Shown one piece after another: positions 208 through 43,021 of a DNA stretch of 64,000 nucleotides. The notes beneath the pieces are model-generated. The model did no database searches. It was given only the letters and a program-made list of their open reading frames with translations, and had not been told where the DNA came from. Source of the DNA: Pseudomonadota bacterium (GTDB lineage Bacteria; Pseudomonadota; Alphaproteobacteria; Paracaedibacterales; CAIOTO01); assembly GCA_040387495.1 (NCBI GenBank), contig JAZKDQ010000003.1, forward strand, positions 1-64,000. Direction: 5' to 3'. Every line of letters starts with the position of its first letter. The stretch's first letter is position 1. A program made the translations under genes and the position numbers.

Positions 208-993
208 ATGAATATGAATATTTTATTTTCTGTTTTTGCTGGGCTCATATGTGCATTTAAAATGGATGTTGTCGCAAGCGGTCCTAGTCAGCATTCACAC
301 TTTCTAAATGTGTCAGCAGACAAAAATGAGCAGAAACGTAAGAAAGAATTGGATGAAGAGGTGTTTAGCTCTAATGTGCCTCTGAATCTTGGTAAAGAAA
401 AAAGGGTTTTTGATCCGTTGTCATATATGAGTGATGATTCACTGAGTTCTATCTCGGTTGATACAACTGATGGTTCCAACGCAGATTCAACTACAAATGA
501 ATGGGGTAGTGTGGGAACTTTTAGTGATTCTGAAGATGAATGGATGAGATATTCTCATGTTAGTCAAAGGAGAGTTGAAGCGTGGTGGAGATGGTGGAAT
601 CACCATTGTTCCTCGTTTAATTCACTTCAGAGAGTTTTTGAGAATACAAAAAGAAAATTAGAACTTTTGCCCGGAAATACTGCAGTGTATGCAATGGAGA
701 GTACTGTTGACCGGCATATACGCAACTATGAATATGCACTTGATTTATATAAGGATTTTTTAGAAAGCACGCCTGTGGATATAATCAATAAAAATATAGT
801 GCCAGAAATGACAAAATTGAGAAATGAAGTGCTTCTATCGATTGATACTGTTATTGATGCCATTGATGGATACAAAATAAATAAATATAAATTAATGAAA
901 AATAAATATTTGGATGATATTGTATGTGTTTTAAAAAGTGAACGTATAAAGATAAGTGGAATACTGTTTTCCCTCTCTCGATACCTCGATTAG
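208..993 (+). CDS. Hypothetical exported protein with Ser/Asp-rich region and helical C-terminus
   Basis: 261 aa ORF; hydrophobic N-terminus (ILFSVFAGLICAF...VVA) resembling a signal peptide; no family recognised. Confidence 0.65.
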   Translation: MNMNILFSVFAGLICAFKMDVVASGPSQHSHFLNVSADKNEQKRKKELDEEVFSSNVPLNLGKEKRVFDPLSYMSDDSLSSISVDTTDGSNADSTTNEWGSVGTFSDSEDEWMRYSHVSQRRVEAWWRWWNHHCSSFNSLQRVFENTKRKLELLPGNTAVYAMESTVDRHIRNYEYALDLYKDFLESTPVDIINKNIVPEMTKLRNEVLLSIDTVIDAIDGYKINKYKLMKNKYLDDIVCVLKSERIKISGILFSLSRYLD

Positions 994-6027: not shown

Positions 6028-8052
6028 TCAAACATAACAAGTATCTATTATATATTGGTTCCTACGATCTTCTTCTGATTTATCGGTTTTCGGTATTGTC
6101 AATTCAACCATTTCTTTTGTAATGATTACGGTTGTTCCTCTTGCATCATCTGCATTTTCAAGCACAGGGTCGAGCAGTTCATCAACAATTGATCGGAGTG
6201 CTCTGGCCCCGGTTTTTGATTCAGAGGCTTTTTTCGCAATAGCATCAAAGGAATCATCTGAAAATTCAACATTAATTTCATACGCTGGTGATGAAAGCAA
6301 CGACTTAAATTGTTGAATGATTGAGTTAGCTGCTTCCGTTAAAATGCGGCGTAATCCAGTTGCATCGACGGGTTCAAATAAAACACGTTTATGAAGGCGC
6401 CCGAGCAGCTCAGTTTTCATACCATACTTTTCTAATTCAGAAAGTGGTATGGTGAAACGTTTTTCAATAATGATTTGTTCAGTGCTTTTTTTTGATGGTA
6501 ATGGCTTTACAACAAGTTTAGTATTTGTGGGCTTTAATCCATAGCGTTCTAATTCAGTATCTTTAAATGAAAGAGTAGTTCCAGCCGAAGTAATATCCAT
6601 AGAATTATTTTTTTTTGTTTCTGCTCGTATTACCTCATCTTTTTCTTTATTATCCTCTTCTCTAGTGGCCTCTTTTTCAGTCTTTTTTTCTATGTTTGCT
6701 TCAATAACATTCTTCTTAATATTTTTAATTATGACATCATATGATGCTGGCTTAATGCCTGTAAAGGCGCCGGCTGTGATAAATAAGATGTTTGTTGTAT
6801 CGACAAAATAAGTTCGTTTATTAGGCCCCTCACCTTCATCAATTTTAATTACATCCCCTTGTATCAAACGTAATAATTCACCTTGTACATCCGCGCCTGC
6901 AATGTCACGTTCACCCCCACCTGATTTTGCTGCTATTTTGTCAATTTCATCAATAAAAATAATGGTTTTATTTTGGGTGTCTTCTATGTTGAAGTTATTA
7001 GCCATGAGTGCTTTTTTTATAAGTCCTGAAGCACTTTGTCCAACATAACCAGTACGTGTTAATGAGCTGGCATTTCCCATAATCAATTTGACATTGACAC
7101 CATTGGCATTTAGAAAGTGCTGTAAATGTTCCAAAGATGCTGTTTTTCCGCACCCACTTTGTCCAATAAGAAGCATATTACTTTTATCGAAGTGGACCCA
7201 TCCTTTTTCTGCTGCTAATGCGGGGTTAGTTTGTATAAGATTATTTAATTCGAGACCTGCATAATGTTTGTAAATATGCGTTGCGAGTGCAGACATTGCC
7301 CTGTCTTGTCCGATAATGTATTTGTTTAGATGATTTGAGATGGATCGAGAGGACGGAACTGTAGGGGCCGTATTTTCTATTGTTTTTTCTAAGTTCCGAG
7401 TAAGTTCATCATGAAAGGGGATATAGATTACTTCACCTTTTTTTGAGGGTGAATTAATATTTTGTTGATTACTTTGTGGTTCATCACGCTGTGTCGTTAA
7501 TGGAGGCTGATCTCTCAAATTGCGTTTTCTTTTATGAGGAGGTAGATAAACATCAGATTTTGATGGTCCTTTGCTTAATGGATCGAGAGTTTTATCTCTT
7601 TCTTTATTTTTTTCTATTTTTTCTTTTCTTGCTTTCTGTCCAAGCTCTTTGATTGTAAGGAATTCTAAGAATGGATCTTTCCAAAGAGGAGGCATTGCAT
7701 CTGAATAATGTTCAGATTTATCTTCCCAGACTTTGTAATTATTTAATATTTCATCTGAATTTCCTGTATTGTAGCTATTGAAAAAATTGTTAACTTTAGT
7801 GTTAACTTTGACTGCTGCGGACTCAAGTGACTCATAGTTCACCAGTTCTAAGCTATTAAACAGTCTGTCGTAATTTTCTTTTTCGGCTTTTCTAAAGTTT
7901 CTTCCAGTTCTTGCAGACTTGTTGCCGCCATCTTTTCTCCCGCCAAAGATGTCATCGCTGGCTAAGGCTGAGTCACTTGAAAATCCTATAATTGTTAAGC
8001 TGGAAGTTAATAAAAGCACGCGGGCTTTTGACATTATTTTTATACAAGTCAT
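6028..8052 (-). CDS. Atypical ClpX-family AAA+ ATPase with signal peptide, no Zn-binding domain and an HbYX-like tail
   Basis: LNKYIIGQ, KSNMLLIGQSGCGKT (Walker A), TGYVG (pore-1), IIFIDEIDKI (Walker B), RDIAGADVQ (pore-2), NILFITAGAF, ELLGRL, KTGARALRSI; AAGGAG RBS before ATG 8052. Confidence 0.88.
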   Translation of the reverse strand: MTCIKIMSKARVLLLTSSLTIIGFSSDSALASDDIFGGRKDGGNKSARTGRNFRKAEKENYDRLFNSLELVNYESLESAAVKVNTKVNNFFNSYNTGNSDEILNNYKVWEDKSEHYSDAMPPLWKDPFLEFLTIKELGQKARKEKIEKNKERDKTLDPLSKGPSKSDVYLPPHKRKRNLRDQPPLTTQRDEPQSNQQNINSPSKKGEVIYIPFHDELTRNLEKTIENTAPTVPSSRSISNHLNKYIIGQDRAMSALATHIYKHYAGLELNNLIQTNPALAAEKGWVHFDKSNMLLIGQSGCGKTASLEHLQHFLNANGVNVKLIMGNASSLTRTGYVGQSASGLIKKALMANNFNIEDTQNKTIIFIDEIDKIAAKSGGGERDIAGADVQGELLRLIQGDVIKIDEGEGPNKRTYFVDTTNILFITAGAFTGIKPASYDVIIKNIKKNVIEANIEKKTEKEATREEDNKEKDEVIRAETKKNNSMDITSAGTTLSFKDTELERYGLKPTNTKLVVKPLPSKKSTEQIIIEKRFTIPLSELEKYGMKTELLGRLHKRVLFEPVDATGLRRILTEAANSIIQQFKSLLSSPAYEINVEFSDDSFDAIAKKASESKTGARALRSIVDELLDPVLENADDARGTTVIITKEMVELTIPKTDKSEEDRRNQYIIDTCYV

Positions 8053-8641
8053 AACACTTTTCTCCTTGGTTGAATAAGAAAGTATGCTTTGCAGTTGTCA
8101 TGACATGTACAAATGAAATTATTCCATTTTATACATAATCTTTTTTGTCATACATTTCTTGCACATTGTCGCATTTTGTATTTTTCAATGAGTACGCTTT
8201 TGAACCATGATTCACGATTACCCCGTACTTTGACTAATTGAATACCTAAAGTGCTGAGATCATTTATCTGGCAAATTACGTGATAAGTCTTCATTGAGAA
8301 AAAACCCCTGTGTTGAGAAAATGTTGACATTGATATGCTGCTCCATACTCACTTATAATCTTTAGCTTCACACAAAATACATGATAAGTATTTATGTTGC
8401 GCGAAAGAGGTGTTTAATGACCTCTTATTTATTATTTTAAGTAAAAATGGTTAATTTATGATTAATTGTGGCTAGAGATTTACAAAAAGTGATGGGGTTA
8501 AGTTTTATCAGCACACTGTTTTTGCACACACAAAGAGATCTGTTCTTGTAAACATTATGGTGACAGAAAGATTCCTAATAAATCTTCTGGCACAATGGAT
8601 TCGTTGACGATAATGTAATACATGAAAAATGGAGTAATAAT

Positions 8642-9196
8642 ATGCAAGAGCACAAACCTGGTCTTTGGTATGGAACAACTATCGTTTCTATACGTAGGAA
8701 TGGTAAAGTTGTCATCGCTGGTGATGGCCAAGTTACATTAGGGAGTCAAATAATTAAAGCACAGGCGAAAAAGGTTCGTCGTCTTGCAGGCGGTCAGGTG
8801 ATTGCTGGGTTTGCAGGCGCAACGGCCGATGCTTTCGCGTTGTTTGAACGATTAGAAGGTAAGTTGGAGCAGTATCCATCGCAGCTTGCACGTGCGTGTG
8901 TTGAGATGGCGAAGGATTGGCGCACGGATCGTTATTTGAGGCGCCTTGAGGCCATGATGTTGGTGGCTGATAAAAACGTTTCATTGGTGTTAACAGGAAC
9001 AGGGGATGTGCTTGAGCCTGAAGATGGTATTATGGCAATTGGTTCAGGTGGTGGTTTTGCGCTTGCTGCGGCGCGTGCCCTTGTTGATGTTGATACGCTT
9101 GATGCAGAACATATTGCCAGACGTGCTATTGAAATTGCTGGTGATATTTGTATCTATACAAATAAAAATATTATTGTTGAAAGCTTGATTATATGA
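8642..9196 (+). CDS. hslV: ATP-dependent protease peptidase subunit HslV
   Basis: GTTIV (catalytic Thr), [43 protein letters not shown]. Confidence 0.98.
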
Positions 9197-10991: not shown

Positions 10992-12716
10992 ATGAAATTT
11001 TCTAATAAATTATTTAAAATTCAAGCTAAAATTTCTGTGTCAGCTTTTATCCTGATAGGAAGTGTCTGTCATTTGGGCGCGTCCGATGACTTGTCTGCTG
11101 GTGAATTTGATGAACGTCTTCTTACTGGTGTATCGAGTTTTGGGACGCCAGTGCAAGGTAGGTCTGAATTTAAAGCAGCAGGTTACTCTAGTAAAGGCAA
11201 TCACCGTGATTCTTTGGATTCAGTGTCTTCGCAGTCTCCTGTACATGTGAGACAGCTAAAGAAGAATATTGGTAATCAGCAGCAAGGCAAAGTTGAAGAG
11301 TTTGCGCGCCCGAGAAACATAAATAGGCAAGAAAAACCAAGTGTAGTTGCGAATCCGTCAGGCGGATTAGAGAGAAGTTTAAGTGTACTTAATAATCCTC
11401 AACTGATTACTAATGCACTTGCTAAAAAAGTCCGTGGTGATGAGGGGCGTGGGCGAGACGGAGGTCGTGGTCGTGGCTCTGGTTCTGAGAGAGCCTGGTC
11501 TAAGCAGAAAACGCCTGAAGTACTTTTTGATGCAGTGTATTCTGGTAATAAGCAAAATAGAAATAGCCCTGGTTTTTTTGGCCGTGTTGGATACTCATCA
11601 AACCCTAACCAAGGCACATTGAGTGTTGGGGAAACGTTGCTTTTTACGTCACCTATAAAATCTCCTGTAAAAGAAATATCTCCTAGAAAAGAATCTGTTG
11701 GAAAAGCTTTGCTTGAACGGCTGAGTCATGAGAGTGAAGGTGCTGTGGTGCTGCATGGTCGTGGTGATGCATTGGCTGTTCTTACGGCAAAATCGAGTGA
11801 CGAAATTACTCTGCATGTTGCAGGAAAAGATAGAAAAACAACAATTGAACAAATGGTTGCTAGCGTTGATGTTACTGATGCAAATAAACAATTGTCATTT
11901 CAGAAGCACTATTTCCACTGCCTAAAGCTTAGCGAAGTTGATCGGACAGCTTATCTCGAGCTATTGCTAGCTAAGCCTGAGTTTAAAGGGCAGACGTTGA
12001 AGACTGCGTGGAAGTTTTTGCAAGAAAGTGCTGATTCAGCTTATACATCCTTACGTGGATTTTTTATGGCCGGTAACTTGAGAGATAAAATGCACGCCGA
12101 ATTCATTCGAAATATTTTGGCTGAGTCTCAAACTGTGATAAGTCAGAATCAAACGTTAGTGACTACTTTACGTCAAGCATACGCTACAAGTTCCTCGTCA
12201 GCTATTTCAAAAGAGTTTGCTGCAAATCCAACTGGTGTACTTAGTTTGGATACAAGTGAATGGACTACGAGTCAATTTTCAAAGTGCATAGAATTTATCG
12301 TCAATCAATTTGTTGGATCGCAAGAAACAACTAATATTCAAGCGAAGTCAATGAATAAATTAATAACAACTTTTTCCAAACGGAGTGATGAATTAGCAGC
12401 AGAAAATGCAGAATTGAACGTTGAACTTATAGAATCGAAAAGTAAACTGAGAATAACAGCAAAAACTATTAATGATTTAAAAGAAGAAAACTCTGAATTG
12501 AAGACTAGTCTTAAAGAATCGAAAATTAAATTAAGAGCATCAGTGGCAACAGCTGAGCTGTTAACAGAAGGGCAATCAAAATTGGAAGCGGAGCTTAGAG
12601 AATTGCGTGCTCTTCGAGAGACTTGGCAGATAGAGAGGTCAACTTTAGCTGATAGAGTTGCAGAGTTGTTAGAAGAAAATCGAGAGTTGAAAGCAGTGAA
12701 AAAAACACCAGCTTAG
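10992..12716 (+). CDS. Hypothetical exported protein: disordered N-half, C-terminal coiled coil
   Basis: 574 aa; hydrophobic segment SAFILIGSVCHLGA then SDD; RG-rich patch; L/E/K heptads over roughly the last 110 aa. Confidence 0.75.
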   Translation: MKFSNKLFKIQAKISVSAFILIGSVCHLGASDDLSAGEFDERLLTGVSSFGTPVQGRSEFKAAGYSSKGNHRDSLDSVSSQSPVHVRQLKKNIGNQQQGKVEEFARPRNINRQEKPSVVANPSGGLERSLSVLNNPQLITNALAKKVRGDEGRGRDGGRGRGSGSERAWSKQKTPEVLFDAVYSGNKQNRNSPGFFGRVGYSSNPNQGTLSVGETLLFTSPIKSPVKEISPRKESVGKALLERLSHESEGAVVLHGRGDALAVLTAKSSDEITLHVAGKDRKTTIEQMVASVDVTDANKQLSFQKHYFHCLKLSEVDRTAYLELLLAKPEFKGQTLKTAWKFLQESADSAYTSLRGFFMAGNLRDKMHAEFIRNILAESQTVISQNQTLVTTLRQAYATSSSSAISKEFAANPTGVLSLDTSEWTTSQFSKCIEFIVNQFVGSQETTNIQAKSMNKLITTFSKRSDELAAENAELNVELIESKSKLRITAKTINDLKEENSELKTSLKESKIKLRASVATAELLTEGQSKLEAELRELRALRETWQIERSTLADRVAELLEENRELKAVKKTPA

Positions 12717-12956: not shown

Positions 12957-13967
12957 ATGAGTAAAAATAAATTTTTTGTTGCATATGTGGCGACATTACT
13001 AAGTTCATGCGCCGTGTTTTCAGCGGACTTCGACGAAGGTGCTGGACAATCTCACGTGACATTTAGTGCATCTACTGCTATGTCTGAGACGCCAAAGAAG
13101 GTAGATCTAGGTGGAGTTACTTATGATCTGACTCCAGACACGGCACGATATATTACTAAGGAAAAAGCTACGATTTTAGGTACTCCTGGCCTGAAAGCTG
13201 AAGTTGAAAATGAATTCGCAGGTAAACGGATACCTGAACGACATTTAAGCATGAAGAAAGCTGCTGCTATTTCAGATAAAAAATTTGAAAGAGCCCAAAA
13301 AATGACACAACTTTCTCAAAGGGCAAGTCTAAATCAAGAAAAAGTGAGCGAACAACAACGTAATAAAAAACTTCTGGCGAGTGCCCAAAAGCGTGACGTT
13401 GAACATGATCAGGTAGCGCGTGCTTTACAAGAGACGTTATCAAAACAGCGTAGCGCTGTAGTGGCGTTGCAAGATAAGTTATCTCAGAGCGATGTTTCTG
13501 TAATTGATTTGGTATCAAAGGTTGATGTGTTTAAAAAAGCTCTTTCTCAGCTAGAAGCAGAGAAAGAAAAGGCATCCGCTGAAGATACAGAATTCTTCGC
13601 AGAGCTTGAAGCTAAAATGAATACCATGACAACACAGTATGAGCTTGCGCAAAAGGCACTTTTGAGTGAAAAGGCTGCTGCAAATCAATTGAGAGCAGAT
13701 TTAGCTCATAAAGAGGCTAGTCTACAGGCGACTAAGAGTAAAGAAGCCGCATTACTTACTAGTTTAAGGGGAATGGCTCTGTCAGGTGCTTCTTTAGATG
13801 CTGAGTTTGAAAATGCTGGTTCAGAAGATGAGAATGGATTTGAAGGTGCAGGTTCAGAAGATGAGTTGCATAACTCTGGCGCAGCTGCTGCGCAGGTTCC
13901 TCAACAAAATGAACATCAAAAACCTACAGCAACGCTTCTTGAGGATGATGATTTAGAGGCCTTCTAG
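12957..13967 (+). CDS. Hypothetical exported coiled-coil protein with acidic tail
   Basis: 336 aa; AAGGAG RBS; signal peptide MSKNKFFVAYVATLLSSCAVFS; long helical A/E/K/Q region. Confidence 0.78.
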   Translation: MSKNKFFVAYVATLLSSCAVFSADFDEGAGQSHVTFSASTAMSETPKKVDLGGVTYDLTPDTARYITKEKATILGTPGLKAEVENEFAGKRIPERHLSMKKAAAISDKKFERAQKMTQLSQRASLNQEKVSEQQRNKKLLASAQKRDVEHDQVARALQETLSKQRSAVVALQDKLSQSDVSVIDLVSKVDVFKKALSQLEAEKEKASAEDTEFFAELEAKMNTMTTQYELAQKALLSEKAAANQLRADLAHKEASLQATKSKEAALLTSLRGMALSGASLDAEFENAGSEDENGFEGAGSEDELHNSGAAAAQVPQQNEHQKPTATLLEDDDLEAF

Positions 13968-20073: not shown

Positions 20074-21381
20074 ATGTTTAAGCATAGATCATTTGTGTTA
20101 ACTTTGCTTGTGGCAACAGCATCAACGGTGTTTGCTTCGACAGCAACCTCTATAACGCCTGCAACTACAGCGAGTACAACTACAATTGCAGCAACGGTTA
20201 CTCCAGTAGTGCCAGCGACTCCAGCAGTGCCAGCGACTCCAGCAGCGACTCCAGCAGTGCCAGCAGCGACTCCATCTATGGTGCCCACTGCTGCTCCAGC
20301 AGCAACATTGTCAGCACCAAGTGAAAATCGTCGTCGCACCCCGGCATCCAGCCCTTATGATTGTAATTACTATTCTTGTGGTTATACGGCAGACCCAATA
20401 ACGTTAAATTATTGTACAAGTTTACAGGGTGATAATGCGCGTATCGCAATGGGATGTTATATTCGTTATCTTGAAGCCCATGTATGTCCAACAGGCGAAG
20501 ATGCACCAACAAACCCTCCATTGGATGTGAAGTCAGACGGAACAGGTCGTTGCCAGATCGCACGTAATCAAATAGTATTAGGTATGCAAGCAGCTTATGC
20601 AAATGATCCTACTATTTTAGATAAGGTCTCTCGAACAGGCTCTAGAACAAGTGCTTCGGAAACTCCTTCAGCAGCAGTAACAACAGCTGCACCAGCAACA
20701 ACGACGGCTTCAACAACAACTGCACCAGCAACAACGACGGCTTCAACAATAACTGCGCCAACACCAACGCCAACAGCTGCACCAACACCAACGACGATCC
20801 CAACACCAGCTCCAGTAGCTGTATCTGCTGATCCAGGTATAGCATCACAGCAAGCAGCTTCTGCTGCAACTCAGGCAGCGCAGTCGGCTCAACAAGCCGC
20901 TACTGCAGCAACACAAGCAGCACAATCAGCCCAGCTTGCTGCACAAAGTGCCGGCGCAGTAACAACGAATTCCCAAGTTGCTCAACAGTCAGTACAGTCA
21001 GCACAATTGGCAGCAAATTCAGCATCACAAGCTTCTAAAGCAGCTCAAACAGCTGCAACGAGTGCAAGCCAAGCAGCACAAGCCGCACAAGCGTCTTACC
21101 AGCAAGTCGCAGGTTTAGCACAAAATCCAACAGCACAGCAGGCGGTTTCACAATCCGTTATTCAATCTGCAAGTCAAGCCGTGTCTCAAGCCTCAGCTGC
21201 ACAGGCCGGTGCTAATCAAGCGATAGCAGCGCAACAACAAGCTGCATCTGCTGGAATGCAAATTTCAATGTTAAATCAGACAGCAGTAGCAGCTACGACA
21301 GCAGCACCTCAGGCCGCAAAGACAGACAACGCGGCGGCTACATCAGCAGCTTCAACATTACTTTCAGCAATTTTAAAGTAA
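20074..21381 (+). CDS. Exported low-complexity protein: T/A/P linker, Cys-rich domain, T/A/P linker, Ala/Gln heptad region
   Basis: 435 aa; GAGGGG RBS; signal peptide ending VFA; Cys domain shared with the next gene. Confidence 0.8.
   Translation: MFKHRSFVLTLLVATASTVFASTATSITPATTASTTTIAATVTPVVPATPAVPATPAATPAVPAATPSMVPTAAPAATLSAPSENRRRTPASSPYDCNYYSCGYTADPITLNYCTSLQGDNARIAMGCYIRYLEAHVCPTGEDAPTNPPLDVKSDGTGRCQIARNQIVLGMQAAYANDPTILDKVSRTGSRTSASETPSAAVTTAAPATTTASTTTAPATTTASTITAPTPTPTAAPTPTTIPTPAPVAVSADPGIASQQAASAATQAAQSAQQAATAATQAAQSAQLAAQSAGAVTTNSQVAQQSVQSAQLAANSASQASKAAQTAATSASQAAQAAQASYQQVAGLAQNPTAQQAVSQSVIQSASQAVSQASAAQAGANQAIAAQQQAASAGMQISMLNQTAVAATTAAPQAAKTDNAAATSAASTLLSAILK
20687..20749 (+). 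repeat. Intragenic direct repeat, 33-nt period
   Basis: CTGCACCAGCAACAACGACGGCTTCAACAA at 20687 and 20720. Confidence 0.85.
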
Positions 21382-21432: not shown

Positions 21433-21966
21433 ATGTTTAAGAGTAATTTTAGAATAGCTTATTTTATAGCTTTGCAGGCAGTGGTGGCAATTGCTTCTGC
21501 TTCCACACAAACGCCAACTACTTCTGTGGCAGCAACTCCCACAGCAACCGCAGCACCTGCGGTAGCTCTAACAACAACGGCTGTTGTGACAAATGCTGCT
21601 GCTCCATCTGTACCTGCGCCAACGCCAGCGGCACCAGAGTCGGTTGTCACTATAAAAAACTGTACGTATGCGAATGGTTTGCTTGGTAATGCAAATGCAC
21701 CAATTCGTGATTTTTGTCTTTCACAAACGACAGATATAAGCACAGGAAAAGCTCATAGAGCTATAGATTTCGCAATGGGATATTATGTTGCTATGAAGTG
21801 CACAGCTGGAAATTCAGTGTTAGATGGAAGTTGCAAGAATGCTGCTAATACAATTGCGAATGGTGTTGCCCTCGCATTCCATTTAGATTATACAACATTA
21901 CATGAAATCCGCAGAGCAGTTCCACCGGGATCTACAGCTGGGTGCCCTTGTTCAGCTGCGGCATAA
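21433..21966 (+). CDS. Exported protein paralogous to the upstream gene (T/A/P linker plus Cys-rich domain)
   Basis: 177 aa; AAGG RBS; signal peptide MFKSNFRIAYFIALQAVVAIASA; shared Cys pattern. Confidence 0.8.
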   Translation: MFKSNFRIAYFIALQAVVAIASASTQTPTTSVAATPTATAAPAVALTTTAVVTNAAAPSVPAPTPAAPESVVTIKNCTYANGLLGNANAPIRDFCLSQTTDISTGKAHRAIDFAMGYYVAMKCTAGNSVLDGSCKNAANTIANGVALAFHLDYTTLHEIRRAVPPGSTAGCPCSAAA

Positions 21967-26463: not shown

Positions 26464-26665
26464 TGGTTCTCAACGAAATTAAAACTTAGAAAAATGATAG
26501 CATGCATATATGTGTAGGACTAGTCCCAAGGCTGTTTGAGGGGGAAAAATTCAACTTGCGTTTTTGGAAAAGAGTAATGTATTGTGCCAGAGAAATAGGG
26601 TGTGGTTTTTGTTTATATAAAAATTAAGTCTAAATAAGTTGATTGTAATAGTGAAGGAGATACCC

Positions 26666-28378
26666 ATGAAGGTATTTAATGTTTTGAGGCGATGGCTTTT
26701 GGTGCTTGTGTGCTCGGTTGGTTCGGTTTGTGCGATGGAAAAGAAAGTATATATGCCAGATGGAACAGATGTTTATGAATGCAGTCATAATGTGTTGACA
26801 GTAGATGCTAGGCTTGTTGAAGACGGCCTTTTTGATGAAAAAAAAGAAGGTCTATTTCCCGCTATTTCCGAGAGGGTAAATGTAATCGCAGAAGAAATTG
26901 CTGGAAATGTAGATAAACTAACAACCCAAATAAGGCATCAGCCTGATGGAATAAACTATTTTATTTGCATGGGCGACACTAAGGTTGGGAAAAGCAGTTT
27001 TATTTCAGCTTTAATAAGAAAATATGGCGTAGATTTAAATATTGTTCCTGAAATCGGTTCTAGTTTTAAGTCTTGCACAAAAAATGTGGAATTGTTTAAG
27101 TTGCACTTACCTACATCTACGGGGCTAGCTTCAGTTGTAATTGCTGATGGTTCAGGCTCTAGGGATTCAGGCGGTTGGGAGCAAGACCTTGCAAACATTC
27201 TTAGTATGACTCCTATTTCAGAGATTTCCTCTGTTCATTTTTTAGTTTTTGTTACTGAGGCTAATGCTGAAGCTCCAGCTATAGGTTTAGCTGATGCACT
27301 TAGGCAGCTTGGTGGAAGATTTCCAGGTATTGTTATTAATCCTAACTCATGTTTTACATTGGTATTAACTAAAGGGTCGGCTGATTTTAATTGTGAAAGG
27401 TATTTTGGGGAATTATTGCCTGAGGCATCTGGACTTTCTTATTTTAAGGAGTCAGGAACGATGGAGTTGTTAAATAAGATAGGCGACAAGCCAGATGAAC
27501 GTATTTTGAAGTTCCCTCGTTTTTCACGTGTTGGTGAGCAGGATTTATATATTCAAGAGGCCTTTGCTAAACGTTTTGGAACAGCTGATTTTGGTCGATT
27601 TTTATATAATTTTGCTGTAATACCAGAAATCAATCAAGGACTTAGGGACCTAGTGCGTATTTGTCATGAAGAATTTTCTGATAATATTAGAAATGAAGTG
27701 CCTGCTAAAATAGGGACTCGTCTTTTTTCTCTAATAGAACATGCACGAAATTCTAAATCCCATACGTCAGCACAGTTGATAGATTCGTTTGCTAGAGTGT
27801 CTAATAGCCTTCGTAATGTTGATGAAAATGATTTTGTTGAATCTGTTAAAAACAGTCTTGTTCCATTGGGTAAATTAGGTGATTTAGACGCGGATACTTT
27901 ATTTATGAACACTTATAATTCATTATTTACGCTTCTACGTCACTTAAAAGTGCCTATAGAGATTCCTTCTATTTCTGGTGCGCTTGGCCCATTAACAGAC
28001 ATGTTTGATAAATTGGCAAATACTGAAACTAAAGTAATTAATGTTGAATGGGTGGATACTGAAAGAAAAAGAGTTGGCTCAAATAACGGTAAGCTTGTTT
28101 TTGATCGTAAAAAGAATAGAAGATGGTGGGTTGGAGGTCCAATTTTAACAAATAAAGAGACACTTTCAACAACTTTTAATTTAACGAATGGCTCTATAGA
28201 GATTTCTGAAATAAAAAATGGCAATGGAGAATTTGTAAGAGATTGTATAGTAGGTGAGCATAGTAATAGAAGATTTGCGGGTCGTGAATGCAACAAGTAT
28301 ACATATACCCCCCCTAAATCTTGGGATAATCTCGTGCGTGAATTTGAGATAGACAGTGGTTGGGTTGAAAATTATTAA
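26666..28378 (+). CDS. Exported P-loop GTPase-domain protein (TRAFAC, AIG1-like); start corrected to ATG 26666
   Basis: AAGGAG RBS; signal peptide MKVFNVLRRWLLVLVCSVGSVCA; G1 GDTKVGKS, G2 SCT, G3 DGSG, G4-like LTKG. Confidence 0.72.
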   Translation: MKVFNVLRRWLLVLVCSVGSVCAMEKKVYMPDGTDVYECSHNVLTVDARLVEDGLFDEKKEGLFPAISERVNVIAEEIAGNVDKLTTQIRHQPDGINYFICMGDTKVGKSSFISALIRKYGVDLNIVPEIGSSFKSCTKNVELFKLHLPTSTGLASVVIADGSGSRDSGGWEQDLANILSMTPISEISSVHFLVFVTEANAEAPAIGLADALRQLGGRFPGIVINPNSCFTLVLTKGSADFNCERYFGELLPEASGLSYFKESGTMELLNKIGDKPDERILKFPRFSRVGEQDLYIQEAFAKRFGTADFGRFLYNFAVIPEINQGLRDLVRICHEEFSDNIRNEVPAKIGTRLFSLIEHARNSKSHTSAQLIDSFARVSNSLRNVDENDFVESVKNSLVPLGKLGDLDADTLFMNTYNSLFTLLRHLKVPIEIPSISGALGPLTDMFDKLANTETKVINVEWVDTERKRVGSNNGKLVFDRKKNRRWWVGGPILTNKETLSTTFNLTNGSIEISEIKNGNGEFVRDCIVGEHSNRRFAGRECNKYTYTPPKSWDNLVREFEIDSGWVENY

Positions 28379-42346: not shown

Positions 42347-43021
42347 ATGACCATCCGTTACAAAATTATAAACTCAATAGCCTGTCTTTTTTTAGCCACT
42401 ACGGCTTTTAGTGACAGTGAAACCAATGAAACCAGCCACATCACTTCATTTGTTGAATCTCAGCTTTCCAATGGTAAACCAGAAGAGGCATGTAAATTTC
42501 TTGATCAGTTAGAAAAGGAATACGTTCCAGAAGCACTTTATCTCAAAGGTGTTCTAATCCTAAATGGTGTTTACAATAAAGGCATTCGTAATCCACGTGA
42601 AGCAAGTGTTTATTTTGCAAAAGCAGCAGCGCTAAAATATACACCCGCAATTGCGGCGTTAGCTGATAGCTATCTTGATGGCGATGGAACTGAAAAAGAT
42701 GAAAAGCAAGCATTCATTTTATACAAGCAAGCAGCAGATTTAGGTGACGGCTCGGCTCAATTCAATGTTGCCATTTTGTATCGTGATGGAATAGGCACAA
42801 AGAAATCAGCTAAAATGGCCTTAAAATACATGCGAATGGCAGCGAACAACAGCGAGCTCGAAGAAATCCATGACGATGCACATGTCATTATCGAAGAAAT
42901 TCTTGATGAAATGGCTTTAAAATATATGCATAAAGCAGCAAAAAACAAAACGCCAGGGGCAAATTACGAAAAGACAAATATTGCTATTGATAAAATTATA
43001 GATGAAATGAAGAATCCATGA
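42347..43021 (+). CDS. Sel1-like repeat protein, exported
   Basis: Signal peptide; three SLR units (ALYLKG...YFAKAA, ALADSYLDGDG...YKQAADLG, AQFNVAILYRDGIG). Confidence 0.88.
   Translation: MTIRYKIINSIACLFLATTAFSDSETNETSHITSFVESQLSNGKPEEACKFLDQLEKEYVPEALYLKGVLILNGVYNKGIRNPREASVYFAKAAALKYTPAIAALADSYLDGDGTEKDEKQAFILYKQAADLGDGSAQFNVAILYRDGIGTKKSAKMALKYMRMAANNSELEEIHDDAHVIIEEILDEMALKYMHKAAKNKTPGANYEKTNIAIDKIIDEMKNP

Follow-up and report, generated by a model that had tools for sequence, protein, structure and literature searches.

A ClpX-derived ATPase clade with an export-like N-terminus and an Hb-[YF]-X tail: candidate host-acting unfoldases of intracellular symbionts

The window analyzed here, i.e., the whole 64,000-nucleotide stretch of a Paracaedibacterales contig, encodes a AAA+ ATPase (P0001) that belongs to a clade of rebuilt ClpX proteins. 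Comparison with canonical ClpX shows that these proteins have lost the zinc-ribbon adaptor domain, the RKH loop, and the ClpP-docking IGF loop, and that they have gained what look like a Sec-type export segment, a helical N-domain, and a flexible charged tail ending in a hydrophobic residue, Tyr or Phe, and one further residue (Hb-[YF]-X). Among placeable genomes, members come from a single order, whose bacteria live as obligate intracellular symbionts of eukaryotes. From these features we infer export, action in the host, and docking on the 20S proteasome: our preferred, though tentative, explanation is that the proteins are secreted unfoldase effectors whose tails would dock on a host ring, most likely that of the 20S proteasome. 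The gene and the parts of its product are laid out as follows (residue numbers are those of P0001):

6028..8052, minus strand: whole ORF of P0001, a ClpX-derived AAA+ ATPase of 674 aa plus the stop codon (6028-6030)
8062..8067, minus strand: Shine-Dalgarno-like AAGGAG, read directly, 9 nt before the ATG at 8052
7960..8052, minus strand: signal-peptide-like segment (residues 1-31) with a basic n-region, the h-region VLLLTSSLTIIGF, and A-L-A before S32, assigned by inspection
7897..7959, minus strand: acidic/Gly-rich disordered linker SDDIFGGRKDGG... (residues 32-52; pLDDT <50 over 19-52)
7573..7896, minus strand: clade-specific helical N-domain (residues 53-160) with conserved L, FF, Y..W, W, and F positions
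7366..7572, minus strand: disordered Pro/Lys/Arg/Gln-rich linker (residues 161-229) with HKRKR at 173-177 (pLDDT <50 over 159-227)
6658..7365, minus strand: AAA+ large domain (residues 230-465; Pfam AAA_2 and AAA; pLDDT mostly >90)
6475..6657, minus strand: variable, mostly disordered Lys/Glu-rich insert at the place of the ClpX IGF loop (residues 466-526; pLDDT <50 over 468-498 and 509-520)
6103..6474, minus strand: Arg finger R552, AAA+ small domain, and sensor-2 G615/R617 (residues 527-650; Pfam ClpB_D2-small)
6031..6102, minus strand: charged tail IPKTDKSEEDRRNQYIIDTCYV (residues 651-674; pLDDT 60-72), the last three codons (6031-6039) encoding C-Y-V

The ORF that had been singled out in a previous, sequence-only reading of this stretch is real, while the start proposed there (MSKARV...) corresponds to residue 7 of a likelier, longer ORF. 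The ATG at 8052 is the likelier start because the homologues P0003 and P0004 conserve the longer N-terminus in a comparison of N-termini. A search of sequencing runs for the locus found no RNA dataset among the runs listed, and the one run that contains it in full may be that of the source sample.

The motor core of P0001 is intact, as had been proposed, and all elements that characterize AAA+ ATPases of the ClpX/HCLR clade (Walker A/B, pore-1, sensor-1, Arg finger, and sensor-2) are present. Its translation reads GQSGCGKT as Walker A (297-304), TGYVG as pore-1 (334-338), and IIFIDEIDK as Walker B (364-372), which lie in the large domain together with sensor-1, followed by ELLGRL at the Arg finger (548-553) and TGARALR at sensor-2 (614-620). 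Across 22 members that are 27-47% identical to P0001, residues G297, G300, G302, K303, G335, Y336, G338, D368, E369, D371, and K372 are invariant, as are R552, G615, and R617. Because Walker A/B, the pore-1 Tyr, the Arg finger, and sensor-2 are thus unchanged in all of these members, the ATPase is, by this comparison, under selection. A AAA+ motor of this type needs ATP, and the Gram-negative periplasm is devoid of it.

By sequence, the nearest solved structures are bacterial ClpX chains (E 1.5e-46 in a PDB search), with mitochondrial ClpX chains as the next-best matches (E ~7e-42). Nevertheless, P0001 falls below the cut-offs of both curated ClpX equivalog models, NCBIfam NF003745 (237.6 bits versus 359) and TIGR00382 (217.5 versus 370.75), and the match is split into two stretches on either side of the insert. 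The zinc-binding domain zf-C4_ClpX (PF06689) had no match in P0001 or in any of 22 members scanned, whereas the canonical ClpX of the same genome matches it with 71.8 bits. Where this canonical copy has the RKH loop in GGRKHPQQEFLQVDTTN (GGRKHPQQEF), P0001 has GEGPNKRTYFVDTTN (GEGPNKRTY) and no such loop. A motif search for [ILMV]GF between sensor-1 and the Arg finger (residues 430-547) found none; the insert found there instead (466-526) includes ELERYGLKP, a partial copy of the motif preceding the Arg finger. In the 21 of 27 members whose IGF region the parser could read, this region is either shortened to 21-24 residues (14 members) or expanded to 38-127 residues (7 members), and the sole [ILMV]GF regex match in the clade is the FG[LFM]xP motif beside the Arg finger rather than an IGF loop, compared to 74 of 96 parsable ClpX-like proteins outside the clade that have the motif. 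The loss of C4 domain, RKH loop, and IGF loop noted from the sequence is therefore borne out by domain scan, alignment, and motif search. Because the IGF region is deleted or replaced, ClpP docking by the known route is impossible for the clade. Nor is P0001 the only ClpX of its genome, which had been a point to check: a canonical clpP-clpX pair with zinc finger and IGF loop lies on contig C4, and hslVU is present too.

At the other end, the N-terminus of P0001 agrees on inspection with the layout expected of a Sec (SPase I) signal, namely a basic n-region, an h-region of 10-15 residues, and small residues at -3/-1, all inside the initial ~35 residues; its basic residues are K5, K9, and R11, and A-L-A is followed by SDD. 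The hydrophobic stretch VLLLTSSLTIIGF reaches a maximum of 2.3 in 11-residue Kyte-Doolittle windows, i.e., it is moderately hydrophobic only, and the segment is modelled as a lone helix (2-17). We call it a signal peptide on the basis of inspection, hydropathy, and conservation; a crude signal-peptide filter flagged 35% of large ORFs, which is too loose, and was used for no count. The signal-peptide-like start that the sequence-only reading had pointed out is not a peculiarity of P0001: all 30 clade members have a hydrophobic export-like segment and a small-x-small site followed by acidic residues (e.g., ALA|SDD, GFA|SS, ALA|ADD, VFA|SDN, and AYA|TSQ as putative cleavage sites), and the DD/GD-rich stretch behind the presumed cleavage site is conserved as well. 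Neither the canonical ClpX nor the HslU of this genome starts with such a hydrophobic segment. With basic residues before and acidic residues after the h-region in all 30 clade members, the charge layout fits an N-in, C-out orientation. The N-domain that follows is modelled as four helices (pLDDT 78.6), with L12, F38, F39, Y54, W57, W72, and F79 invariant in alignment A4; VIA-align gave a best Z of 7.2 to unrelated helical proteins, and Foldseek found no match in the PDB at E ≤0.001. An NLS-like K[KR]x[KR] in the N-terminal region was dismissed as too weak a signal, since it occurs in 10 of 27 members and arises in shuffled sequences at a frequency of up to 0.45 (P0001 0.45).

An export signal together with intact pore loops would also be accounted for if P0001 stayed in the envelope or in the space between bacterial and host membranes and powered translocation there, as HSP101 does in the Plasmodium PTEX translocon; this secreted ClpB-like AAA+ unfoldase, which bears a signal peptide, sets a precedent for activity outside the producing cell (PMC6550532). 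However, we consider this scenario very unlikely: the Gram-negative periplasm is without ATP, no gene for a membrane-pore partner accompanies the clade across genomes, and the conserved tail would be left unexplained. A vacuolar space also finds little room in the biology of the Holosporaceae, of which PMC11909080 describes one bacterium as free in the cytoplasm of its host, with no host-derived membranes around it, and others as cytoplasmic or intranuclear.

The tail KTDKSEEDRRNQYIIDTCYV of P0001 terminates in C-Y-V, as previously noted, and its last three residues are hydrophobic-Tyr-X, the C-terminal motif that defines HbYX (PMC11475706 and PMC8907193). Chance had been suggested as one origin of so short a motif, but an Hb-[YF]-X end is found in 25 of 30 clade members (22 of 27 without three near-duplicates) as opposed to 2 of 130 ClpX-like proteins outside the clade and 3.0% of the genome's own ORFs (31 among 1038 with 200 aa or more), which is more than chance. 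The penultimate residue of these 25 tails is Tyr in 17 and Phe in 8. Concern had also been voiced that Cys is a weak hydrophobic residue for this role; Cys does stand in P0001, yet the position is usually filled by Met or Leu in the clade, Met being the commonest, which eases the concern. The final residue varies (V, I, L, M, S, N, T, or A), as do, freely, the length and sequence of the linker before the motif. The motif is missing from five of the 30 members, two of which look truncated, and one whole sub-clade, made up of P0137 and the G024 and G018 copies, has basic residues at the C-terminus instead. A LIR-like W-x-x-[LM] before the tail is confined to one sub-group and was rejected as a family feature. 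In its variability, the last residue resembles the X of HbYX and not the ends of PDZ ligands or the fixed ...FIL of HslU, and the suggestion that the tail is a PDZ-type ligand fits poorly because the last residue of the clade is often S, N, or T.

The same residues weigh on a broader proposal, namely that Hb-[YF]-X is the bacterium's own signal (guiding it through the outer membrane, addressing it to a PDZ protease or chaperone of the periplasm, or serving as a stability tag) and that any host function is independent of it. C-terminal signals are common in bacterial secretion, P0001 must somehow cross the outer membrane, the genome encodes a secretin, a T2SS-type ATPase, and a platform protein, and three other signal-peptide-like ORFs of the genome end in [LM]-F-G. 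Against this, PDZ domains and the outer-membrane beta-signal require a hydrophobic or aromatic last residue in place of the frequent S, N, or T, a beta-barrel protein of the window has a normal end (...FFSF), and the other signal-peptide-like candidate effectors of the genome lack the ending. We know of no C-terminal tripeptide signal for type II secretion, and a search of the genome found no type IV genes of VirB4, VirB11, or DotB type. Overall, we regard a purely bacterial role of the tail as unlikely. In favour of the effector reading, two further signal-peptide-like proteins of this genome have repeats of eukaryotic type, one of them ankyrin repeats (two genes from a secretin) and the other Sel1 repeats.

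What the tail might bind in a host is best considered in light of the known 20S ligands. Either Phe or Tyr at the penultimate position activates the human 20S proteasome and multivalent activators tolerate imperfect motifs, while for single peptides human 20S strongly prefers Tyr at the hydrophobic position (all PMC8907193), a point against docking by a clade with mostly Met there. Tails with Phe depart from the strict archaeal definition of HbYX, which demands Tyr. A modelled complex of three Thermoplasma 20S alpha subunits (PSA_THEAC) with residues 630-674 of P0001 scored 0.01 and 0.02 in runs without controls and speaks neither for nor against docking.

PUB and PUL domains bind the tail of Cdc48/p97, and a secreted, host-acting P0001 might use its tail on such a partner instead of the 20S, e.g., PUB/PUL-domain cofactors, and act as a stand-alone remodeller or disaggregase or as a Cdc48 mimic, without degradation. 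All that points to export and to a conserved docking motif at the C-terminus speaks just as much for this alternative, Met/Leu-Tyr-X resembles the ...L-Y-G end of Cdc48/p97, and several tails have W-x-x-[LM] near their end (EPWKTLYM and EDWESMFV), which hints at a longer recognition element. Moreover, ClpX can unfold proteins without a protease, and its mitochondrial form partially unfolds ALA synthase to activate it (PMC7077987). Yet six flexible Hb-[YF]-X tails on a AAA+ ring are the specific arrangement used for proteasome docking and the sequence does not allow a host partner to be named, so we find this alternative rather improbable.

The distribution of the clade, which was defined on a tree and comprises 30 proteins (27 non-redundant), rests on its placeable members, as 13 of the 27 non-redundant clusters are without taxonomic placement. 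Placeable members come from 16 of 62 genomes of a single order (Paracaedibacteraceae and kin) of obligate eukaryote symbionts, including a copy in G002 that NCBI records as coming from a Candidatus Paracaedibacteraceae MAG; none were found in 199 alphaproteobacterial genomes outside the order, whose three extra ClpX-like genes lack both end features. In some genomes the clade is represented by two or three divergent copies that differ in their N-regions, as is often seen in effector families. Holosporales are described as obligately associated with eukaryotic hosts (PMC11909080). Broader searches gave no further members: a search of genome contigs with P0001 returned only canonical ClpX loci of unrelated bacteria, a homologue search with a 22-row alignment was swamped by ClpX, and a protein-atlas search yielded only generic AAA and ClpX clusters.

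The neighbourhood of the gene bears on another option raised earlier, a partnership with the divergently encoded HslV, for which P0001 would be a cytoplasmic alternative cap that docks by its C-terminal tail and uses the hydrophobic N-terminus as a membrane tether. Four other genomes of the genus (G002, G003, G004, and G005) share the adjacency to hslVU seen in the window, the final stretch of the HslU model (positions 318-440 of 441) can be aligned to the small domain and C-terminal region of P0001, and HslU activates HslV by a C-terminus inserted between HslV subunits (PMC11475706). However, none of six genomes examined from outside the genus (G054, G055, G051, G009, G015, and G018) has the gene next to hslVU, and the idea is further weakened because an exported protein could not reach cytoplasmic HslV; the charges around the hydrophobic segment predict that the bulk of the protein is translocated. 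The tail is also unlike the conserved end of HslU (...DLSKFIL in the genome's own copy) and differs from it in its variable last residue. This makes an HslV cap highly improbable.

Under our preferred explanation, a secreted unfoldase docking on a host ring, the protein would be exported via Sec and cross the outer membrane, perhaps with the secretin, T2SS-type ATPase, and platform gene products, and would then assemble into a hexamer in the ATP-containing cytosol or nucleus of the host. There, the N-domain would pick host proteins, the six tails would engage a host ring, the 20S alpha ring being the likeliest candidate, in the manner of PAN, Rpt2/3/5, and Cdc48, and the chosen proteins would be unfolded and degraded without ubiquitin. 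Also in favour of this explanation, the bacterium has no 20S of its own, HslV being its only proteasome-family (PF00227) match. A more specific version, in which variable N-domains of such a symbiont-secreted proteasome cap choose the substrates, neither ubiquitin nor the 19S is needed, and paralogues retarget the host 20S to different substrate sets, is possible but doubtful. The earlier checks that could be computed, on the ends of homologues and on a sole clpX, left the effector reading standing. Against it, we know of no pathway that moves a folded ATPase of ~70 kDa across the outer membrane of these bacteria. The route favoured for this group in PMC11909080 is type VI secretion, which works without Sec signals. 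As regards 20S docking, ClpX-type rings are without the OB/coiled-coil ring of PAN, Rpt, and Mpa, which speaks against it.

The statement that no such effector had been described agrees with our search of PMC open-access full text and bioRxiv, which found neither a secreted ClpX-like protein nor an HbYX-bearing bacterial effector, nor any ClpX paralogues in Holosporales ("ClpX" is missing from the Holosporales papers listed). Within this literature, the clade is an undescribed family. On a cautious reading, a housekeeping AAA+ motor has been rebuilt, losing its adaptor domain, tag-binding loop, and peptidase-docking loop and apparently acquiring a new substrate domain and another docking tail along with a signal for export. 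If the effector reading were true, the clade would provide the first case of an ATP-driven unfoldase that itself serves as a bacterial effector in the host, and the first foreign cap for the eukaryotic 20S proteasome, different from E3-ligase mimics and from the passive SAP05 bridge. Ubiquitin-independent targeted degradation would then also gain a natural tool that is genetically compact, and the control of protist hosts by the largely unstudied Holosporales would become testable.

Among known systems, bacterial ClpX is the closest by sequence and shares the AAA+ large and small domains, GYVG pore-1, Arg finger, and sensor-2. P0001 differs in scoring under both curated cut-offs and in adding the export-like N-terminus, helical N-domain, and Hb-[YF]-X tail, and it has no known means to bind adaptors, ssrA-type tags, or ClpP because the zinc-binding domain, RKH loop, and IGF loop are absent. 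HslU, the sister family of ClpX and neighbour of the P0001 gene in the genus, activates its peptidase by means of its C-terminal tail, but P0001 scores 124.3 bits against a cut-off of 362.45 (TIGR00390), has no I-domain (~130 residues after pore-1 in HslU; alignment A1), and has an unrelated tail sequence. Mitochondrial ClpX is, to our knowledge, not known to carry an HbYX tail, and there is no sign that P0001 descends from it. Mitochondrial ClpX (CLPX, yeast Mcx1) also has an N-terminal targeting sequence, and its yeast form unfolds proteins without ClpP (PMC7077987), though the N-terminus of P0001 resembles a bacterial Sec signal and not a presequence.

The proteasomal ATPases PAN, Rpt2/3/5, Cdc48/p97/VAT, and Mpa are alike in having a flexible tail with terminal hydrophobic-Tyr-X, on what is for P0001 a predicted hexamer, and in combining a conserved motif with a varying linker. 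However, PAN belongs to another AAA+ clade (on residues 290-397 of P0001, PAN models score only 17.5-23.1 bits versus cut-offs of 500-750), and PAN, Rpt, and Mpa have an N-terminal coiled-coil/OB ring where the N-domain of P0001 is modelled as a four-helix bundle without OB fold. HbYX ATPases have Leu, Tyr, or Phe as the hydrophobic residue, whereas Met is commonest in the P0001 clade and Phe replaces Tyr in about one third of its motif-bearing tails; P0001 further differs in bearing an export-like signal and in coming from a bacterium without a 20S. In the proposed outcome, the closest parallel is SAP05 of the phytoplasmas, whose effectors leave by the Sec route. SAP05 shares no sequence relationship with P0001. 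It is an obligate-parasite effector that sends host proteins to the proteasome without ubiquitin (PMC8525514 and PMC10850148), but whereas SAP05, a small protein, acts passively by bridging to Rpn10 on the 26S proteasome, P0001 would be an ATP-driven replacement of the 19S on the 20S.

P0001, the AAA+ ATPase under study here, is encoded by a gene that the sequence-only reading had recognized correctly, although its start was probably placed 18 nt too far downstream: two homologues keep the longer N-terminus MTCIKIMSKAR..., and the window sequence has an ATG at 8052 with AAGGAG 9 nt ahead.

6028-8052, minus strand: P0001 open reading frame, 674 residues, from translation

The translation contains all motifs previously named for it (Walker A, Walker B, GYVG, ELLGRL and GARALR) and ends in Cys-Tyr-Val as reported (...NQYIIDTCYV). 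Pfam matches are limited to AAA_2, AAA and ClpB_D2-small, and the best NCBIfam matches are two ClpX equivalog models with scores well under their cut-offs (237.6 vs 359 and 217.5 vs 370.75 bits), followed by the HslU model at 124 bits. Among solved structures, bacterial ClpX is nearest by sequence (E 1.5e-46), with mitochondrial ClpX second and HslU third.

The genome (1.66 Mb, 99.9% complete by marker genes) also encodes the canonical clpP-clpX pair that the sequence-only reading had proposed to look for. It lies on contig C4, where ClpX carries the C4 zinc finger (PF06689, 71.8 bits), GGRKHPQQ and SSIGFGAD next to a ClpP scoring 279 bits. P0001 lacks the zinc finger, the RKH loop and the IGF loop by Pfam, translation and alignment, as first noted. 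This cell thus has three proteins of the ClpX/HslU group, and P0001 does not replace the canonical copy. Judging from its sequence, it cannot engage ClpP by the known mechanism. The sole proteasome-family gene of the genome is hslV (window 8642-9196).

An AlphaFold2 model of P0001, computed with a 22-sequence family alignment as input, has a mean pLDDT of 74.7 and the following layout.

Residues 2-17: lone N-terminal helix
Residues 19-52: disordered acidic/Gly stretch
Residues about 55-160: helical N-domain
Residues 159-227: disordered basic/Pro-rich linker
Residues 230-465: AAA+ large domain, confident
Residues 468-520: insert, largely disordered
Residues 527-650: small domain
After residue 650: C-terminal tail, lower confidence

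Fold searches with the N-domain returned no recognizable fold, so substrates cannot be named. The insert (window 6475-6657, minus strand, residues 466-526) contains LSFKDTELERYGLKP, a partial repeat of the pre-Arg-finger segment IPLSELEKYGMKTELLGRL, and a comparable duplicated motif is present in the homologues P0005 and P0123.

A word-indexed search with P0001 found one protein of 98% identity and six relatives at 35-45%, and a profile search across 1.84 billion representative proteins yielded some twenty further sequences that scored higher than the ClpX background. We combined the top profile matches, copies from related genomes and the genome's own ClpX and HslU into a tree of 160 sequences (MAFFT, 359 trimmed columns, FastTree LG+gamma, rooted on HslU), and this tree, not end features, set group membership. 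P0001 falls into a clade of 29 (local support 0.69), or 30 with the sister sequence G015_470 (0.80), which includes three near-duplicate rows and hence 27 non-redundant members. The profile search also retrieved other ClpX-like forms without export-like start and without tail (P0132, P0133, P0136 and P0122); three of these have two tandem ClpX-like AAA+ modules (776-987 aa) preceded by N-terminal membrane-like segments, and the remaining one (1238 aa) has three such modules in tandem.

Within the clade, catalytic and pore residues are invariant in 22 members sharing 27-47% identity with P0001, and none of the 22 members scanned has the ClpX zinc finger. The stretch at the IGF loop, which our parser could read in 21 of 27 members (P0001, among the six unreadable, had its insert read directly), measures 21-24 residues in 14 of the 21 and a variable 38-127 in the other 7; the median in parsable non-family ClpX-like proteins is 49. 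In all 30 members the N-terminus runs from basic residues through a hydrophobic segment to a small-x-small site and then acidic residues (e.g., ALA|SDD, GFA|SS, ALA|ADD, VFA|SDN, AYA|TSQ or CHA|SDS). At the other end, a hydrophobic-Tyr/Phe-X motif, scored as [A/V/L/I/M/F/W/C/Y]-[Y/F]-X and most commonly Met-Tyr-X or Met-Phe-X, closes 25/30 members (22/27 non-redundant) and 2/130 tree sequences outside the clade. The same ending occurs in 31/1038 ORFs of at least 200 aa in P0001's own genome (3.0%; 11/1038 for Tyr only), and a published survey puts HbYX ends in bacterial proteomes at 0.72% (PMC11475706). It follows the small domain after about 10 to 70 residues that cannot be aligned, i.e., the extreme end alone is kept. 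The exceptions and related copies with basic ends are as follows.

P0007: stops within the small domain
P0003 and P0124: stop directly past the small domain
P0123: ends M-I-S
P0137: ends R-S-M; relatives in genomes G024 and G018 likewise end in basic residues
L112:2015-3247, minus strand: sub-clade copy with basic end, G024
L111:1319-2554, plus strand: sub-clade copy with basic end, G018

The P0137-type sub-clade ends in …RRSRSM or …NRFHAL and has no Hb-[YF]-X. P0007 (581 aa; L086:7500-9245, minus strand, in G001) ends …ASEELWG at a stop codon that is well away from the contig ends, and may be a decaying copy. The G053 copy, which was not in the tree set (L114:1939-3675, plus strand), ends …EEYTPRE, compared with …EEYGFYN in its G051 orthologue and …DEYGFYS in that of G052. 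The sequence-only reading had asked whether signal peptide and penultimate Tyr are kept together: all clade members have the export-like start and most have Tyr or Phe as the penultimate residue, and this co-conservation across the family is strong.

At least one member is present in 16 of 62 genomes of the order to which P0001's genome belongs (G000-G005, G009, G015, G018, G024 and G051-G056), covering three of ten family-level groups, at a scan threshold that might miss weak members. Several genomes have more than one copy, e.g., two in G018 and two side by side in G002, which belongs to the same genus as P0001's genome; the second, highly divergent G002 paralogue (L084:10304-11614, minus strand; 436 aa, with 29% identity to P0001 across 213 residues) directly neighbors the 630-aa copy, adjoins hslVU and ends G-F-Y-S. 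Among 201 alphaproteobacterial genomes sampled at about one per family, only three outside the order encode a second ClpX-like gene, with neither export-like start nor tail; the unpublished genome G100 in this sample gave a single canonical ClpX match only. All 14 placeable clusters of the 27 fall into this order, and the other 13 come from metagenomes. As far as sampled, the family is limited to obligate symbionts of eukaryotes, for which a review describes one Holosporaceae bacterium lying free in host cytoplasm and a cytoplasmic or intranuclear location for others (PMC11909080). The P0001 gene sits between murJ-lolD and divergent hslVU, a setting that is repeated in G002, G003, G004 and G005 (all same genus) and missing from six genomes examined of other genera; the linkage to hslVU thus looks like inherited gene order, not functional coupling.

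The genome encodes a secretin, a T2SS/T4P-type ATPase and a platform protein, one of each, as well as the type VI genes TssC and VgrG. Neither VirB4 nor a further ATPase of the T2SSE family (VirB11 or DotB, for example) was found. Two genes from the only secretin (domains Secretin and Secretin_N_2) lies an ankyrin-repeat protein with signal-peptide-like start, and a Sel1-repeat protein (window 42347-43021, plus strand) starts similarly, so eukaryote-type proteins with Sec-like starts are not unique to the P0001 gene; a crude filter for hydrophobic start, small-x-small site and acidic residues finds 21 ORFs genome-wide. The ankyrin/secretin region (L104:550-1926 and L104:5068-6738, both minus strand; contig C1 about 204.5-210.7 kb) includes, between the two genes, a signal-peptide-like ORF of 890 aa that reaches no family's cut-off. 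Just downstream of hslU, a 574-aa ORF (window 10992-12716, plus strand) has a start resembling a signal peptide (...HLGA|SDD...), a disordered stretch rich in Gly and Arg, and at its C-terminus a long coiled coil; it has no Pfam or NCBIfam family at cut-off and may be another secreted host-directed protein. Five more window ORFs of 177-579 aa have such starts and no Pfam family.

208-993, plus strand: signal-peptide-like ORF
12957-13967, plus strand: signal-peptide-like ORF
20074-21381, plus strand: signal-peptide-like ORF
21433-21966, plus strand: signal-peptide-like ORF
26639-28378, plus strand: signal-peptide-like ORF

On contig C20 (L107:3-2849, minus strand), a VgrG-type spike (Phage_GPD, Phage_base_V, Gp5_trimer_C) with a Lys/Ala-rich C-terminal extension of roughly 400 residues and a weak HC2 histone-like match runs past the contig end.

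Taken as a whole, the original observation on P0001 is borne out by motifs, lost ClpX parts and family co-conservation, and our literature searches found no published description of such a family. Its members share a ClpX-derived AAA+ motor that is intact and conserved. It has lost all three ClpX-specific interaction elements, and its gains are an N-terminus of export-like type, a helical N-domain private to the family, and Hb-[YF]-X at the strict C-terminal end. The motor depends on ATP, and from the charge layout the bulk of the protein is predicted to be translocated; the host cell is the only compartment fitting both, and we infer that P0001 acts there. We lean towards the broad reading, in which the protein is an unfoldase that is secreted, acts in the host and docks through its terminal tail. 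That this protein caps the host 20S proteasome is a well-motivated hypothesis that we nevertheless consider rather unlikely. Several points speak against the overall reading: with single peptides, human 20S does not prefer Met as the hydrophobic residue, the motif is missing from a whole sub-clade, the secretion genes name no outer-membrane route for P0001, and the literature favors type VI secretion for this group.

What the tail resembles can be weighed against known C-terminal signals. PDZ ligands and the outer-membrane beta-signal require a hydrophobic or aromatic last residue, and both readings are disfavored because the family often ends in S, N or T. The tail matches the docking motif of proteasomal ATPases better than the alternatives considered here. 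For human 20S, one study describes penultimate Phe and Tyr as both working and multivalent activators as tolerating imperfect motifs (PMC8907193), in line with the occurrence of both residues in a family of hexameric proteins. The tail of HslU, in contrast, is fixed as ...FIL, whereas the last residue of the P0001 family varies.
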